This document shows, in pieces, positions 44,698 to 57,689 of a stretch of 64,000 nucleotides of DNA. The position numbers were made by a program, and so were the translations under genes. The first letter of the stretch is position 1. Every line of letters starts with the position of its first letter. The notes beneath the pieces are model-generated. The model saw only the letters and a program-made list of their open reading frames with translations, searched no databases and had not been told where the DNA came from. The stretch covers positions 81,220 to 145,219 of the forward strand of contig CAKPHC010000004.1 in NCBI GenBank assembly GCA_934155645.1, written 5' to 3'. The DNA is from an uncultured Bacilli bacterium (GTDB taxonomy: Bacteria > Bacillota_I > Bacilli_A > RF39 > UBA660).

Positions 44698-45657
44698 ATG
44701 TTAAAAGATATTTATAAAGAAATTAAAAAATATAATAATATTGTTATTGCTAGACATATTGGTGTAGACCCAGATGCTTTAGCTAGCCAAATTTCTTTAA
44801 GAGATTCTATTAAAAAAACATTTCCTGATAAACATGTTTTAGCAGTAGGTGGTAGTAGTGCAAAATTTAATTACTTTCCTAAACTAGATAAAACAGAAGA
44901 ATTAGATAATGCCTTATTAATAGTAGTAGATACACCTGATAAAAGAAGAATTGATATTCAAAATTTTGAAGGATTTGACAGCTATATTAAAATCGACCAT
45001 CATCCCTTTATTGAAAAGTATGCTAACTTAGAATATATAGATGATACTGCAAGTAGTGCTTCAGAATTAGTCTATAGATTGATTGAACATACTCCTTTAA
45101 AAATGGATATGGATATAGCAAGAACAATAATTTTAGGAATTGTATCAGATACTAATAGATTTTTATTTAATTCAGGAGCAGTAACGTTCGGAGTTATGAA
45201 AGATTTATTAGAAGAATATCCAATTAATATGCCTGATTTATATAAAGATATATTTATGAGACCTTTAAGTGAAATAAGATTACAGGGCTATATTGCAGAA
45301 AACTTTAAAGTAACTGAAAATGGTTTAGCAAGTGTTAAAATAACTAATGACATTATAACTAAATATGGAGTAGATTCAGGTTCAGCAGGTAATTTAATCA
45401 ATAATTTTAATTATATTGAAGAAGTACTTGTATGGGTAACAATATCAGAAGATACTAAAAATAATTTAATTAAATTAAATATAAGATCACGTGGACCAAT
45501 TATTAACCATATAGCAGAAAAATATAATGGTGGTGGTCATCACTTTGCAAGTGGTGCTAGAGTAACTAGTATGGAAGAAGCAGAGGCCTTATTAGAAGAA
45601 CTAGATGAAGCATGTGAAAATTATATAGAGAATTTAGGTGATATAGATGAAGATTAA
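44698..45657 (+). CDS. nrnA: DHH-family phosphoesterase (NrnA-like oligoribonuclease/pAp phosphatase)
   Basis: DHH motif (KIDHHP) and a DHHA1-like C-terminus (GGGH). Confidence 0.75.
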   Translation: MLKDIYKEIKKYNNIVIARHIGVDPDALASQISLRDSIKKTFPDKHVLAVGGSSAKFNYFPKLDKTEELDNALLIVVDTPDKRRIDIQNFEGFDSYIKIDHHPFIEKYANLEYIDDTASSASELVYRLIEHTPLKMDMDIARTIILGIVSDTNRFLFNSGAVTFGVMKDLLEEYPINMPDLYKDIFMRPLSEIRLQGYIAENFKVTENGLASVKITNDIITKYGVDSGSAGNLINNFNYIEEVLVWVTISEDTKNNLIKLNIRSRGPIINHIAEKYNGGGHHFASGARVTSMEEAEALLEELDEACENYIENLGDIDED

Positions 45658-46240
45658 CAGTGTAGATTTATATATTAGTGCTGTAAGAAGAAGTCAGTAT
45701 CCTACAGAAGGTAAACCAGAATTCTTACTTGTTGGAAGAAGTAATGTAGGTAAAAGTAGTTTTATAAATACTGTAGTAAATAGAAAAAATTTAGCAAGAG
45801 TATCAGCTACTCCTGGTAAAACTCAAACTTTAAATTTTTATAATGTAAATGATAGTTTTTATTTAGTAGATGTACCTGGATATGGATATGCATTAACTAG
45901 TAAAGAGCAACAAAAGAAATTTGGATTAATGATTGAAGAATACTTAGAGAAAAGAGCAGAATTAAGAAGAGTATTTATGTTAGTAGACTTTAGACATAAA
46001 CCAACTGAAGATGATTTACTAATGTATAACTTTTTAAAGTATTATCATGTTCCTGTCACTATAGTAGCAACTAAAGTAGATAAAGTTAATTCAAGTAAAA
46101 AAGATGCTAACTATAAGGCATTAACAGATTCTCTAGATTTAGTAATGGGAGATGACATAGTACTATTCTCTAGTGTTACTAAATTAGGTAGAGATGAAAT
46201 AATACAAAAAATAGATGACTTGACAACCGAGATTGTATAA
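45647..46240 (+). CDS. engB: Ribosome biogenesis GTPase YihA/EngB
   Basis: G1 motif (GRSNVGKSS) and G3 motif (DVPGYG). Confidence 0.85.
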   Translation: MKINSVDLYISAVRRSQYPTEGKPEFLLVGRSNVGKSSFINTVVNRKNLARVSATPGKTQTLNFYNVNDSFYLVDVPGYGYALTSKEQQKKFGLMIEEYLEKRAELRRVFMLVDFRHKPTEDDLLMYNFLKYYHVPVTIVATKVDKVNSSKKDANYKALTDSLDLVMGDDIVLFSSVTKLGRDEIIQKIDDLTTEIV

Positions 46241-46265
46241 ATAGCCAACAAGGCTATTTTTTTAT
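46240..46265 (+). terminator. rho-independent terminator after engB
   Basis: Stem ATAGCC / GGCTAT with loop AACA, followed by TTTTTTT. Confidence 0.6.
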
Positions 46266-46295
46266 TGCCAAATCCCTAGGGGGGGGGGGTATAAT
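46265..46295 (+). promoter_or_regulatory. sigma-A-like promoter (TTGCCA ... TATAAT) whose spacer contains an 11-G homopolymer
   Basis: TTGCCA at 46265-46270, a 19-nt spacer ending in G11 (46279-46289), then TATAAT at 46290-46295. Confidence 0.5.
46279..46289. repeat. poly-G(11) homopolymeric tract
   Basis: A run of 11 consecutive G in an otherwise AT-rich intergenic region. Confidence 0.95.
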
Positions 46296-46329
46296 GATTA
46301 TGGATAAAACATAATTCGGAGGGAGTAAC

Positions 46330-48036
46330 ATGACAAAAAAGAAGATAATTATTGCAATGTGTATAGCAATACTTTTTATGATAGTAGGCTATTCATTATT
46401 ATCAACTAATTTAAATATAAAAGGTACAAGTAACTTAACAGATACTTGGGGTATTAAGATAAGCAATGTTACATATACACCAACCGGTAGAGCTTATAAC
46501 ATAGAAGAACCAACTTATACTGATACTAATATGACATTTAATGTAGGAGTAAAAGAGCCAGGCGATAAAATGGTATTTGATGTAACAGTAACTAATTATG
46601 GAACATTAGACGCTATACTAGAGAAAATTGATGCAACAACTAGTGGTAGTCAACTAATCATTTATAGTATTACAGGAATTGAAGAACAATCTAAATTAAA
46701 AAGTGGTGAAAGCTTAACTTTTCAAGTTACAACAGAATTTGATATAAATGCAACACGTTTACCACAAAGTAATAAGACTTTAAATATTAAATTATCTTAT
46801 GTACAAGATGATGGACAAAGCCTAACACCTAGTAATCCAGGTATCACTGATAATACTTTATTAGTTAAAGAAATATTAGCAAATAACACACCACAGCCAG
46901 ATACCAATATAGATTTTTCACAAATAAGTAGCGATACCAATGGTAAAGGGCTTTATTATACTTCAACTAATACAGAAGATAATAAAACAACATATTACTT
47001 TAGAGGAGCCGTAGAAAATAACTATGTAAAATTAAGAAATGCACCTGTATCAACGTGTACATATAAAGGGGAAAAATTAACATATTATAATAAAGAAGAT
47101 GACAACTACTATGATAAAGATATTACAGAATTACAATGCTTATCAACGAATGTTTGTGCTTTCTACGATGAAGATGGCACATTTGTAAACGGAGTTGTAG
47201 GGTATGATAGTGAAGAAAGTTGCAAAAATGATTGGAAAGGGACATTACTAAATGAAAAAGCAACGTATGAAACTATAGATGAATTATGGCGAATAGTAAG
47301 AATAAATGAAGATGGTAGTGTGAGGTTAATTAGGCAGGAAATAATAGAAAAGAGTGCTTTTAATGAAGAATATGAAGATAATGCCTATGTAGGATACATG
47401 TATGGAACGCCAGGTTCAACAACATATGCAGCAACGCATGCAAATATAAATTCAAGTACAATTAAAACAATGTTAGATACATGGTATCAGAACAATCTAA
47501 CAAATTATTCGTCAATAATAGCGGATGCAGGATCTTGTGGTGACAGAAGTGTAGCTCCTAGTGGGAGTACATATAATGGTTGGGACACTGCTTTAGGATA
47601 TGGAACTAATAATACAATTTACGGACCTTCATCAAGACTTATTCCAAACTATGGTAGTAGTGGAATAAATCCACAATTTAAATGTCCACAAAGTAATGAT
47701 TTATATACAACGGCAACTTCAACAAAAGGTAATAAAGCACTAACTTATCCAATCGGATTAATAACAGCCGATGAAGTAGCATATGCAGGAGGTGTACATC
47801 CCACTACTGCCAATACCGATTATTATCTAACTAATAGAGATTTTTTTTGGACAATGTCGCCTTTTTATTTTACAGGTTCGAGTGAAGTGGGGATTGTTTT
47901 TCGTGATGGTCTTATGGAGGGACACAGCGTCGACCGCGGGTGGGGTGTGCGCCCGGTCATCAATCTGAAATCTACTGTAGAAATCACAAGTGGAGATGGC
48001 ACTAGCTCTAATCCATATGTAATAAAAACTAATTAA
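46330..48036 (+). CDS. Surface/secreted protein with N-terminal signal-anchor and C-terminal DUF1566 / Fib_succ_major-like domain
   Basis: N-terminal hydrophobic helix, and a C-terminus (FFWTMSP ... GHSVDRGWGVRPVINL) resembling the ...SVRCV terminus of DUF1566/Fib_succ_major paralogous domains. It sits behind the poly-G promoter. Confidence 0.5.
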   Translation: MTKKKIIIAMCIAILFMIVGYSLLSTNLNIKGTSNLTDTWGIKISNVTYTPTGRAYNIEEPTYTDTNMTFNVGVKEPGDKMVFDVTVTNYGTLDAILEKIDATTSGSQLIIYSITGIEEQSKLKSGESLTFQVTTEFDINATRLPQSNKTLNIKLSYVQDDGQSLTPSNPGITDNTLLVKEILANNTPQPDTNIDFSQISSDTNGKGLYYTSTNTEDNKTTYYFRGAVENNYVKLRNAPVSTCTYKGEKLTYYNKEDDNYYDKDITELQCLSTNVCAFYDEDGTFVNGVVGYDSEESCKNDWKGTLLNEKATYETIDELWRIVRINEDGSVRLIRQEIIEKSAFNEEYEDNAYVGYMYGTPGSTTYAATHANINSSTIKTMLDTWYQNNLTNYSSIIADAGSCGDRSVAPSGSTYNGWDTALGYGTNNTIYGPSSRLIPNYGSSGINPQFKCPQSNDLYTTATSTKGNKALTYPIGLITADEVAYAGGVHPTTANTDYYLTNRDFFWTMSPFYFTGSSEVGIVFRDGLMEGHSVDRGWGVRPVINLKSTVEITSGDGTSSNPYVIKTN

Positions 48037-48109
48037 TATTTGGTACATTATATGTACCTTTTTTTATACCCAATATTTCTAATTCACATAATATACATTA
48101 GGTGATAAG

Positions 48110-48574
48110 ATGAGGCTTGATATAATTGATGATGATAGTTATAAGATATTTATTAACAGCAATTATATAGAAGATATAGATGTAAAAAATAAAGATGAAC
48201 TGGGTAAAATAGTTAAAGAAATAATTATAAAAATTAAGAATATATATAATATAATGTTAGAAGGCTTTTATGAAGTACACGTATATCCATTAAAATATCT
48301 TGGAATAATACTAGAAATAAGAAATATAGATAATTATTTAAATAAAACAGTAGACCTTAGAATAATTGTTCATAATGATGAAGAAATATATATTAATATA
48401 TATCTTTTAGAGTTAATAAAGAATTATAAAAATATTAAGTATTTAAACAATTCTTTTTATTTAAATATAAATGATTTGAAAAAAGAAGATGTCTATTCAC
48501 TAATAGAAAGTTCTAATATTATTTATGGAGAAGAACTTTCCAACATTAAATCTCATTGGCACAATTTGACATAA
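48110..48574 (+). CDS. Hypothetical protein
   Basis: ORF with no recognisable motifs. Confidence 0.4.
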   Translation: MRLDIIDDDSYKIFINSNYIEDIDVKNKDELGKIVKEIIIKIKNIYNIMLEGFYEVHVYPLKYLGIILEIRNIDNYLNKTVDLRIIVHNDEEIYINIYLLELIKNYKNIKYLNNSFYLNINDLKKEDVYSLIESSNIIYGEELSNIKSHWHNLT

Positions 48575-48618
48575 TAGTGTAAATATGTTATAATTACCAC
48601 TGTTTATAGGGGGATTGT

Positions 48619-48993
48619 ATGAGTAAATTAGGTAAAATAGTATTAGAAAATAATTGTGGTAATCCTAAGGTAATTATTGCTGAAGGTGGAAGATATCCTA
48701 ATGGGATTGAATTAGTTCAAAACTGTGAGGGTGAAAACTTTGTTAGTATACCAGATGATGCCATTGTTAAAACTAATTACCGTGGAAAGAAATTAGATAA
48801 CTGTAAAGCCAATTTAAATAATACAGCTATTTATAATTTAAAAATAAGAGAAATCGGTTGTTTAACTGAAGAAGGATATTATAAATTATTAAGACAATAT
48901 GTTAGTTATCAAGCTTATTTAGGTGGAACTAATTCATCTTATAAGATGGTAAGAACAGAAGTACAAGAGCAATTAATTAAAAAAATGAAATAG
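48619..48993 (+). CDS. Hypothetical small protein
   Basis: ORF with a GGGGG RBS. A terminator hairpin follows. Confidence 0.4.
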   Translation: MSKLGKIVLENNCGNPKVIIAEGGRYPNGIELVQNCEGENFVSIPDDAIVKTNYRGKKLDNCKANLNNTAIYNLKIREIGCLTEEGYYKLLRQYVSYQAYLGGTNSSYKMVRTEVQEQLIKKMK

Positions 48994-55130: not shown

Positions 55131-56393
55131 ATGAAGTTTGTAGAATTATCAAAAGAAGAATTTCAATCTTTTGCTGAAAGTCATGAACAAGAAAGTTTCT
55201 TTCAAACTGTAGAAATTGCTGAATTGAGAAAAAGTTATGGAAGTAAAATATATTACCTAGGAGTTAAAGAAAAAAACACCATTATAGCAGGTGCTATGTT
55301 TTCTGTTACTAAAACCTTTGCAGGTAAATATACCTTTTACGCACCACGTGGTTTCTTAATGGATTATCATAATAAAGAATTACTTAAATTTTTTACCGAA
55401 GAGTTAAAGAAATATTGTAAAAAAAGAAATGGATTAATGATTAAAATAGATCCTAATGTAATATATAGAGTAAGAGGTAATGACGGCAGTATCATTAGTG
55501 ATAAAAAAGATGATGAGACAATTAACAACTTGAAGAAAATAGGATACAAACATTTTGGCTTTAACACAGATATAGTTAATACTCAATCACGTTGGAATTT
55601 TAGAGTAGAATTAAATAAACCATATGAAGAATTAAAAAAAGATTTTTCAAAAAGCACTAGAAAAAATATAGACGCTACATATAAAAAAGGAATTCAAGTA
55701 AGAAAAGGAACTATTGAAGACCTAGAAAGTATGGAAGAAATATTAATTAAGACAGCAGAAAGAAAAGGCTTCAATTATAGAAGCTTGGAATATTATACAA
55801 GAATGTATAAGTGTCTAAAAGATAAAATGCAAATATATCTTGCTTATTTGGACCCAGATGTATATTTGAATTCATCCCTTGAATTGTTAAAGAATGAAGA
55901 AGAAAATAATGCAAACATAAATAAAAAGATGGAACATGATAATGTAGGCAATAAACTAATAAATCAAAAAAGTACTTCTGATAAATTACTAGAGAAATAT
56001 CGTGATGAAGTTGAGCTTGCTAAAAAATTTAAAAAAGAAAATCCTAAGGGAAAAGATATAGGAGTATTGATTTCGTTAAAATCAGGTCAAGAGTATTTAA
56101 CTTTATACAGTGGCTTTTTAGTAGAATACAAAAGATTTACTCCAAAATATGCAATGTATAATGAACACATATTAGATGCTTATAAGTATAAAATACCATA
56201 TGTTAATTTTTATGGTATTTCAGGAATATTTAATCCTAAAGACGAAAACTACGGTATGTATGAATTTAAAAGAGGTTTTGGAGGTAATGTAGTAGAATTA
56301 ATAGGAGAATTCACTTATTCATTAAGTCCTTTGTATTATGTATATACCAATTTACGAAAAATAAAAATATTTATAAGAGCTCATAAGAGCTAA
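55131..56393 (+). CDS. FemAB-family peptidoglycan bridge-formation aminoacyltransferase, paralog 1
   Basis: FemAB-family N-terminus (FAESHEQESFFQT) and the conserved YAPRGF motif. Confidence 0.75.
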   Translation: MKFVELSKEEFQSFAESHEQESFFQTVEIAELRKSYGSKIYYLGVKEKNTIIAGAMFSVTKTFAGKYTFYAPRGFLMDYHNKELLKFFTEELKKYCKKRNGLMIKIDPNVIYRVRGNDGSIISDKKDDETINNLKKIGYKHFGFNTDIVNTQSRWNFRVELNKPYEELKKDFSKSTRKNIDATYKKGIQVRKGTIEDLESMEEILIKTAERKGFNYRSLEYYTRMYKCLKDKMQIYLAYLDPDVYLNSSLELLKNEEENNANINKKMEHDNVGNKLINQKSTSDKLLEKYRDEVELAKKFKKENPKGKDIGVLISLKSGQEYLTLYSGFLVEYKRFTPKYAMYNEHILDAYKYKIPYVNFYGISGIFNPKDENYGMYEFKRGFGGNVVELIGEFTYSLSPLYYVYTNLRKIKIFIRAHKS

Positions 56394-56402
56394 GGAGGAA
56401 CT

Positions 56403-57689
56403 ATGAAATTAGTAACATTAACATCGGAAGAGTTTGAAAACTTTGCAAGTAATCATGAACAATCTACTTTTCTTCAAAGTATAAGTTGGACAAAAGTAAA
56501 AGGTGAAAACGGATGGAAACATACTTTTTTAGGATTTAAAGATGATAGTGAAATAGTAGCAGCAACAATGATTTTATCAAAACAAACACCAGTAAAAAAG
56601 AAAATGTTTTATGCGCCACGTGGTTTTTTAATAGACTATCACAATAATGGTTTGTTAAAAGAGTTTACTTCTGCTGTTGCAAAATATGTAAAGGATAATA
56701 ATGGTATTTTCTTTAAGATTGATCCGTACCTTATGTATCATCAAAGAAATAGAGATGGAAATATAGTAGAAGGTGGAAAAGATAATTCTGATGTTGTTAA
56801 TGAATTAAAAAAACTTGGATTTAAAGAGAAGTGTGCACGCCCTGGAGTTCAAACTCTTCAATCTAAATGGATGTACCGAATTAATTTAAAGGATAGAACA
56901 CTAGATGATGTAATGAAAGATATGACTTCTAAAACAAGACAAATGATTCGTAAAAATGAAAAAAACGGCGTAGTAGTAAGAGAAGGTTCATATGAAGAAT
57001 TAGATAAATTTGAGAAAATTATGAATCATACTAGCAAAAGACGTGAGTTTTTGAATAGACCTTTAAAATATTATCAAAATATGTATAAAGCATTTGGTAA
57101 TGGTAAAGATTTAAAATTATACTTAGCAGAATTACAAATAGAAAAAACACTTAATACATTAAAAGATGAAGTATCTAAATTGGAAGAAGATTATAATAAA
57201 GTTTTATCTAATATAGAAAATGGTAAAGCTAAAATGAATGAGACTAAGTTAAAACTAAAGCAAGATGAAATAGAAAGAACTAAAAAAAGAATAGTTGAAT
57301 TTGAAGAATTATATCAAAAGCATGGCAGTATTTTAACGTTAGGAGCTATATTATATTTTATCCGTGGTCGTGAAGTAATTTCATTTATCGGAGGAGCTTA
57401 TGAAGAATATTTAGAATTCCAACCATTCTACAGTCTTAATTACGAAATGATTAAATATGCCGTAGATAACAAATATGATTATTATAATTTCTATGGTATT
57501 TCTAGCGATTTATCTCCAAAAGACCCAATGTATGGTATTTATATATTTAAAAAGGGATTTGGTGGGGAAGTAGTAGAATTAATTGGTGAATATGATTATA
57601 TAGTAAGTCCTATGTATTATCTTTTATATGATGTTAGTTATAAAGTAGTTCATAAATTAAAGAAAATTAAAGCAAAACTTCATATTTAA
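56403..57689 (+). CDS. FemAB-family peptidoglycan bridge-formation aminoacyltransferase, paralog 2
   Basis: Tandem paralog with the same YAPRGF motif and a coiled-coil insert. Confidence 0.75.
   Translation: MKLVTLTSEEFENFASNHEQSTFLQSISWTKVKGENGWKHTFLGFKDDSEIVAATMILSKQTPVKKKMFYAPRGFLIDYHNNGLLKEFTSAVAKYVKDNNGIFFKIDPYLMYHQRNRDGNIVEGGKDNSDVVNELKKLGFKEKCARPGVQTLQSKWMYRINLKDRTLDDVMKDMTSKTRQMIRKNEKNGVVVREGSYEELDKFEKIMNHTSKRREFLNRPLKYYQNMYKAFGNGKDLKLYLAELQIEKTLNTLKDEVSKLEEDYNKVLSNIENGKAKMNETKLKLKQDEIERTKKRIVEFEELYQKHGSILTLGAILYFIRGREVISFIGGAYEEYLEFQPFYSLNYEMIKYAVDNKYDYYNFYGISSDLSPKDPMYGIYIFKKGFGGEVVELIGEYDYIVSPMYYLLYDVSYKVVHKLKKIKAKLHI

Follow-up and report, generated by a model that had tools for sequence, protein, structure and literature searches.

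The 64,000-nucleotide (nt) stretch analysed here, called the window below, belongs to contig CAKPHC010000004.1 of an uncultured Bacilli bacterium. It contains a run of eleven G residues (G11) in the promoter spacer of a gene for a 568-amino-acid (aa) protein, and this tract is the subject of the present article. Over 7.7 kb the window is identical to contig L001 of a Hadza gut metagenome, and the identical 568-aa protein was found on 16 further contigs. The relatives are metagenome-assembled genomes (MAGs) labelled "Bacilli bacterium", Clostridium sp. CAG:710 and Candidatus (Allo)scybalousia; the nearest named relative is placed only in "Bacilli incertae sedis" (NCBI taxonomy).

The initial annotation described a TTGCCA hexamer, a 19-nt spacer ending in G11 at 46279–46289, and TATAAT, followed by a gene of about 568 aa. 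This anatomy is exact in the sequence, as is the length of the open reading frame (ORF; Table 1). Such a tract was also said to be non-random at about 27% GC, a judgement that the window bears out. Its GC content is 26.7% over 64 kb, G11 is its sole G or C run longer than 6, with two G6 runs next in length, and no C run of 6 or more occurs across it. Runs of G9 or longer appeared at a rate of 0.00 per shuffle in 100 dinucleotide-preserving shuffles. The tract exceeds the uninterrupted G/C run of about 8 or more used as a repeat-length threshold, and it lies between the −35 and −10 hexamers of the presumed driving promoter, which is identified by its consensus and its conservation. An automatic promoter scan does not list this site because it takes spacers of 16–18 nt only. 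Since GGG precedes TATAAT, the window promoter has no TG motif of an extended −10, and recognition should therefore depend on the −35 hexamer and its spacing. RNA polymerase should thus depend on the −35/−10 distance at this promoter. The predicted transcription start site would give a 5′ untranslated region (UTR) of about 27 nt.

Terminator-like hairpins with T runs stand on both sides of the gene. The gene 5′ of the upstream hairpin is the GTPase gene engB/ysxC, and the hairpin would insulate the surface-protein gene from engB read-through. Because terminators are predicted on both sides, the 568-aa gene looks like a single-gene transcription unit dependent on the G11 promoter. In four assemblies (L222–L225) the upstream hairpin and T run accompany the promoter and gene behind a different upstream gene, and the hairpin may be part of the promoter cassette and not of engB. 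A search of Rfam (E ≤ 1) over 45500–48700 gave two sub-threshold small RNA matches at the 3′ terminator and none at the promoter or 5′ UTR, so that an RNA element is not indicated. Two other roles for the tract were ruled out by reasoning. A lone G run cannot build an intramolecular G-quadruplex, and transcriptional slippage is excluded by the position of the tract upstream of the −10 hexamer.

The 568-aa protein has thousands of relatives and belongs to no Pfam family. Single contigs bear several paralogues; none was found elsewhere in the window. An AlphaFold2 model from 65 family sequences (mean predicted local distance difference test score, pLDDT, 82) has an N-terminal hydrophobic helix at residues 3–27, an immunoglobulin (Ig)-like beta-sandwich at residues ~40–165 and a large alpha/beta C-terminal domain. 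The last of these may be an enlarged C-type-lectin-like domain. Foldseek matched the model to generic Ig-like domains only. Pfam searches, at E ≤ 0.01 and then E ≤ 10, gave no match apart from a weak Ig-like one, and in particular no DUF1566 or Fib_succ. NCBIfam yielded only a sub-threshold choice_anch_D match, and the family profile found nothing among PDB sequences at E ≤ 1. The DUF1566/Fib_succ_major-like label given earlier to the C-terminal domain may hold at the level of fold only, and is without support at the level of sequence. In contig L004, from the same species as the window, the C-terminal 60% of the gene is replaced. The flanks are mostly 98–100% identical, with a lowest 200-nt block of 96.5%. 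Either allelic replacement or gene conversion has thus affected the lectin-like part and left the rest alone. Its hydrophobic helix, its Ig- and lectin-like domains, the replacement of alleles at strain level and the fact that diversity-generating retroelements (DGRs; see below) target some of its paralogues make the product look like a variable surface protein.

A common layout precedes the relatives of the gene: TTGNNN, 6–9 nt, an uninterrupted G10–12, TATAAT, about 30 nt, GGAG, and ATG. This cassette is found before paralogues and orthologues at unrelated sites of the chromosome and in more than one species. It is carried by uncultured gut "Bacilli" MAGs from human, rabbit and other hosts, with Hadza and Brazilian ("BRZ") samples among the sources, and by Clostridium sp. 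CAG:710. It stands after engB in the window, L002 and L004, after murB/POTRA genes in L005, L006 and the second gene of L206–L211, and after an acyltransferase gene in L007 and L226. TTG is kept 6–9 nt 5′ of the tract in all family cassettes, and GGAG is kept at the position of the ribosome-binding site in relatives. TATAAT abuts the tract in every listed family cassette except those of L011 (TGTATACT) and L002 (ATAAT), and is also present in the cassettes of L226 and L227. Over 31 distinct contigs the tract is G10 in 11, G11 in 15 and G12 in 5; these lengths, like all those reported here, are consensus calls from short-read metagenome assemblies, some of low coverage. Spacers in the closest clade have 8 nt besides the G run and are therefore 18, 19 or 20 nt long with G10, G11 or G12.

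Relatives also carry "locked" promoters, in which the tract is interrupted (G5AG6, G5TG6, G5AG5, G7TGG and A7G4) or, in L025, L026 and L229, has given way to ordinary sequence in a spacer of 17 nt. Such a mixture of intact, interrupted and replaced tracts is how contingency loci are expected to decay. Family members below ~45% identity are without a G tract. One of these distant relatives, L076 (28% identity), has A18 directly before TGATAAT, some 40–60 nt 5′ of the gene start at 2441; by analogy with the vlp genes of Mycoplasma, this may be a poly-A switch.

Polymorphism of tract length was observed directly at a paralogous locus represented in six independent assemblies (L206–L211: one Hadza, one MERR22 and four of a third study). 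All six share an identical upstream paralogue, P0041, and their multiple alignment shows no difference over its first 3,041 nt (100% identity in 6/6). Variation begins at the tract of the next family gene, which reads G10, G10, G11, G11, G11 and G12, and more than one length occurs inside each of two downstream allele groups. The promoter of P0041 (TTGCCA, ATTCCTTA, G5AG5, TATAAT) is identical in 6/6 of the same contigs, and ten assemblies share one sequence for a family promoter that has no tract (P0081). Since the interrupted and tract-less controls are invariant, they argue that what changes is the uninterrupted run. The G5AG5 promoter is locked at a spacing of 19 nt. The gene caller begins P0041 at an ATG within the promoter TATAATG (L206–L211:1486–1503; MIVVKNKFGVSDMRKK...), and the true start is probably the downstream MRKK. 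Length variants across strains had been proposed as a check on the switch, and G10–G12 at one locus with 3,041 nt of identical flank provides them.

Tract lengths vary from one human sample to another, and they differ at the window locus too, where G11 was found six times (the window, represented by L001; L004; and L222–L225) and G10 once. L222–L225 come from four samples and carry the L004-type allele behind the different upstream gene mentioned above; all are G11. The G10 is in L002 (2952–2961, equivalent to window 46279–46290), a 99.4%-identical strain in which a GT deletion has also removed the T of TATAAT to leave TTGCCA–17 nt–GATAAT. The deletion may represent an escape route to optimal promoter spacing. 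Two contigs of one sample end at or inside tracts: L003 starts at window position 46300 and L228 within the tract. The starts of L003, L228, L022, L042, L050 and L051 all lie 0–30 nt from a tract or gene start. These breaks are at most suggestive, being compatible with tract heterogeneity and also with a repeated cassette or with poor reads after poly-G.

Taken together, the conserved cassette, the occurrence of G10–G12 at one locus and the stable controls support the phase-variation reading proposed in the initial annotation. We consider it probable (roughly 0.78) that G11 is a hypermutable spacer tract that switches a sigma-A-type promoter of a monocistronic surface-protein gene. This reading is backed by porA and tp0126, because the same mechanism has been established experimentally for both. 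From these observations we infer slippage, an effect on transcription, its reversibility and a strength for each tract length, as follows. Slipped-strand mispairing during replication would add single Gs to the run or remove them. With a spacer of 8 + n nt, G9, G10, G11 and G12 would set the hexamers 17, 18, 19 and 20 nt apart. The altered distance between −35 and −10 would shift promoter strength and hence transcription, and expression would rise or fall heritably, yet reversibly, in sub-lineages. By the 17±1 rule, shorter tracts (G9–G10) are probably stronger, and G11–G12 weaker or off. Each paralogue bearing a tract would switch independently, giving combinatorial expression of surface proteins with Ig- and lectin-like domains.

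Several findings weigh against this reading. The nominally suboptimal 19-nt spacer of G11 is yet the commonest assembled state; on one reading most copies are low or off in most populations, and on another the promoter tolerates longer spacers. Locked promoters of the family have spacers of 17, 18, 19 and 20 nt, so that a relation between length and activity is not obvious, and the 19-nt G5AG5 spacer fronts P0041, an intact and widely conserved gene. With G11 in 6/7 assemblies, the window locus seems to vary less than the paralogous one. Both the transcription start site and the sigma factor are predicted from the consensus only, and some of the one-G differences might in principle be errors in the homopolymer consensus of Illumina assemblies.

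Some of these points would also fit a tract that is hypermutable but has no regulatory effect. Spacers of 17–20 nt would then be tolerated, or the −10 hexamer and an upstream T-rich element would drive the promoter, and the polymorphism would be neutral noise at an inherited quirk of the cassette. The range of the locked spacers and the prevalence of G11 are as such a view would have them, and across the family cassettes the length of the tract and that of the remaining spacer do not compensate for each other. We consider this unlikely. An uninterrupted G10–12 is kept in many paralogues and species at 27% GC, always between TTG and TATAAT, and runs of this length would be expected to decay fast if neutral, as the decayed copies attest can happen. 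The promoter has no TG extended −10 that would make the −35 hexamer dispensable, and identical architectures are sensitive to length in porA and tp0126 (PMC3899988, PMC7864442).

It is very improbable that the real tract is fixed and that the differences arose in the sequencing or assembly of a long G run. The data do all come from short-read assemblies, some at low coverage, and contigs break at or near the tract in L003 and L228, possibly because reads are poor after poly-G. The tract is nevertheless internal and flanked by conserved sequence, whereas two-colour poly-G artefacts arise at the ends of reads or contigs and not between −35 and −10. Lengths of 10, 11 and 12 recur across different studies and assemblers (SPAdes NODE, MEGAHIT k141, scaffolds), at ~12–48x where the contig name gives coverage. 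Agreement of four unrelated samples on G11 for one allele (L222–L225) indicates that consensus calling is reproducible, and the interrupted and tract-less control promoters did not vary. Equally little credence is given to a protein-binding or structural site as the conserved element, through which a regulator would control the gene while slippage was incidental. The candidate is CCCTAGGG, a perfect 8-bp palindrome at 46274–46281 that overlaps the start of the tract and that most of the cassettes in the closest clade contain. Other clades, however, keep the G tract without the palindrome (...TTTTTCT-G10, ...TCCGGA-G10, ...ACCGAT-G10 and ...TTCAAT-G10); the elements shared by the whole family are TTG, the G run and TATAAT, and the cassette has no linked regulator gene.

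Paralogues of the gene have a further source of variation. In L226 the 3′ end of a paralogue with a G11 promoter is repeated downstream over 97 nt, and 17/17 mismatches between the variable region (VR) and the template repeat (TR) have A in the template, which is the downstream copy. With the bAvd-like and reverse transcriptase genes that follow, L226 is by its sequence a textbook DGR. Template-like copies also follow paralogues in L005/L006 and L227, whose promoters are G12, and in L021. The combination of a poly-G promoter with a retroelement target was not found in the literature searched. The window gene differs from the L226 paralogue, since the 64 kb hold no template repeat of its 3′ end and no reverse transcriptase or Avd homologue. 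At positions other than A, its 3′ end disagrees with the relatives' template repeats, and retroelement targeting in trans was not demonstrable. The region 47930–48030, at the 3′ end of the gene, has 47% GC in a 27% GC genome, and the gene keeps the 3′ boundary (GTGTGCGCCC...ATCAATCTGAAATCTACTG) of the bona fide variable regions of paralogues. This region may once have been a variable region, or it may be targeted in trans. Retroelement diversification is a layer separate from the promoter switch.

Metagenomes were also scanned with the pattern TTGMMA-N-G(9 or more)-TATAAT, a search that is biased towards the pattern but does not have length polymorphism built in. The matches listed (L086–L205) are mostly from other organisms, with one family locus (L091). 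Among them, TTGACA-N-G9..15-TATAAT precedes small lipoprotein-like genes (e.g. MKMAKKLLAVVLAGVMAVSMLTGC...) of other, higher-GC gut Firmicutes, and lengths differ between samples at apparently the same genes: G9/10/11; G10–13; G11/12/15; and G10/12. Poly-G spacer switches may thus be common in gut commensals. A more tentative proposal, to which we would give slightly less than even odds, is that the window switch belongs, as a single unit, to a two-tier variation system with many loci among uncultured commensal gut Bacilli. In such a system, a large family of surface proteins with Ig- and lectin-like domains would be diversified by DGRs and allelic recombination, each copy being gated independently by its own poly-G switch, and the same switch would be widespread before lipoprotein-like genes of other gut Firmicutes.

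Homopolymer switches in promoter spacers are textbook knowledge for a few pathogens (Neisseria, Treponema, Mycoplasma). The type of switch is therefore already well known, and what is new is its host and context: uncultured commensal gut Bacilli, a large family with Ig- and lectin-like domains, and coupling to DGR targets. Neither this family nor poly-G promoter switches of commensal Firmicutes from the gut were found described in the literature searched, although absence there is no proof of novelty. Whether multi-locus phase variation is truly confined to pathogens, or only seems so through database bias, is a question raised in a recent review (PMC11868660). If the two-tier system and the wide spread of the switch are real, "phasomes" of simple sequence repeats (SSRs) are no speciality of pathogens. 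The finding offers a concrete, testable entry point, by way of existing metagenomic reads, to stochastic surface variation, evasion of immunity (immunoglobulin A, IgA) and phage, and strain dynamics in commensals.

Other features of the window include the neighbouring genes SASP, SpoVIF and SpoIVA. Between the surface-protein gene and der, at 48110–48993, are two small ORFs of 154 and 124 aa, conserved in all strains seen and without a Pfam or NCBIfam match; for the 124-aa ORF there is a perfect TTGACA-17-TATAAT promoter, including a TG, at 48566–48594. Direct repeats of 62 and 141 nt, ~1.27–1.28 kb apart and of 73–76% identity, at 55335–57620 indicate two tandem paralogous genes, unrelated to the G11 switch.

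Table 1. Positions of the promoter, gene and retroelement features (window coordinates unless a contig is named).
Feature	Position	Strand	Remarks
Terminator-like hairpin AAATAGCC-AACAA-GGCTATTT + T run	46239–46264 (hairpin 46239–46259)	+	terminator scan; abuts −35
−35 hexamer TTGCCA	46265–46270	+	5/6 matches to TTGACA
Promoter spacer AATCCCTA + G11 = 19 nt	46271–46289	+	read from sequence
G11 homopolymer, proposed slipped-strand switch	46279–46289	+	
−10 hexamer TATAAT	46290–46295	+	preceded by GGG
Ribosome-binding site GGAGGGAG	46318–46325	+	4 nt before ATG
568-aa ORF	46330–48036	+	ATG at 46330
Allelic replacement segment	46930–48090	+	54–76% identical to L004
Terminator-like hairpin GGTACAT-TAT-ATGTACC + T run	48042–48065 (hairpin 48042–48058)	+	terminator scan; after ORF
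L226 VR	3021–3117		3′ end of the paralogue
L226 TR	3306–3402		
L226 bAvd-like gene	3575–3919		
L226 reverse transcriptase (RVT_1) gene	3903–4698		
L005 VR/TR-like copies	4542–4620 / 4843–4907		
L021 VR/TR-like copies	3748–3843 / 4035–4110		
L227 DGR-associated segment	3272–3330		

The family shares features with several known systems. DGR target proteins of the Mtd/TvpA type have a C-type-lectin fold. The paralogues in L226, L005, L021 and L227 are like them in having a C-terminal variable region with a template repeat just 3′; the window gene, with no retroelement parts in its 64 kb, is not. In Mycoplasma hyorhinis, each vlp gene has a poly-A tract in its promoter spacer. The Vlp system, too, consists of variable surface proteins encoded by a family of genes in the low-GC Bacillota/Mollicutes radiation, and a homopolymer promoter of its own for each gene gives combinatorial ON/OFF expression. 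It differs in its poly-A tract and in its products, which are lipoproteins with repeat regions and not Ig- and C-type-lectin-like proteins. Campylobacter jejuni, also a gut coloniser of low GC content with long G tracts, has tracts of 8–12 in a ~30% GC genome, concentrated in genes for surface structures (PMC6321876, PMC8355987). Those tracts are mostly intragenic and act by frameshift, whereas here the tract is in a promoter spacer.

The nearest parallels in mechanism are promoter poly-G tracts. In Treponema pallidum, the tract of tp0126 lies between −35 and −10 with an optimum of 17 nt, its lengths vary within and between isolates, and the mechanism has been established experimentally for tp0126 and tprL (PMC7864442). 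As in the present family, tp0126 and the tpr genes have poly-G in the promoters of paralogous putative surface-protein genes. The treponemal products are spirochaete outer-membrane proteins unrelated to the 568-aa protein, and several tpr tracts lie just 5′ of the transcription start, not strictly in the spacer. In porA of Neisseria meningitidis, the gain or loss of one G in the spacer poly-G changes the level of transcript (PMC3899988; PMC7864442). There too a G homopolymer occupies the promoter spacer of a surface-protein gene, but porA is a single gene of a Gram-negative pathogen, with a 17-nt optimum. In the uncultured, low-GC, spore-forming gut Bacilli described here, the tract stands before many paralogues, and a comparable effect on their transcription is predicted.

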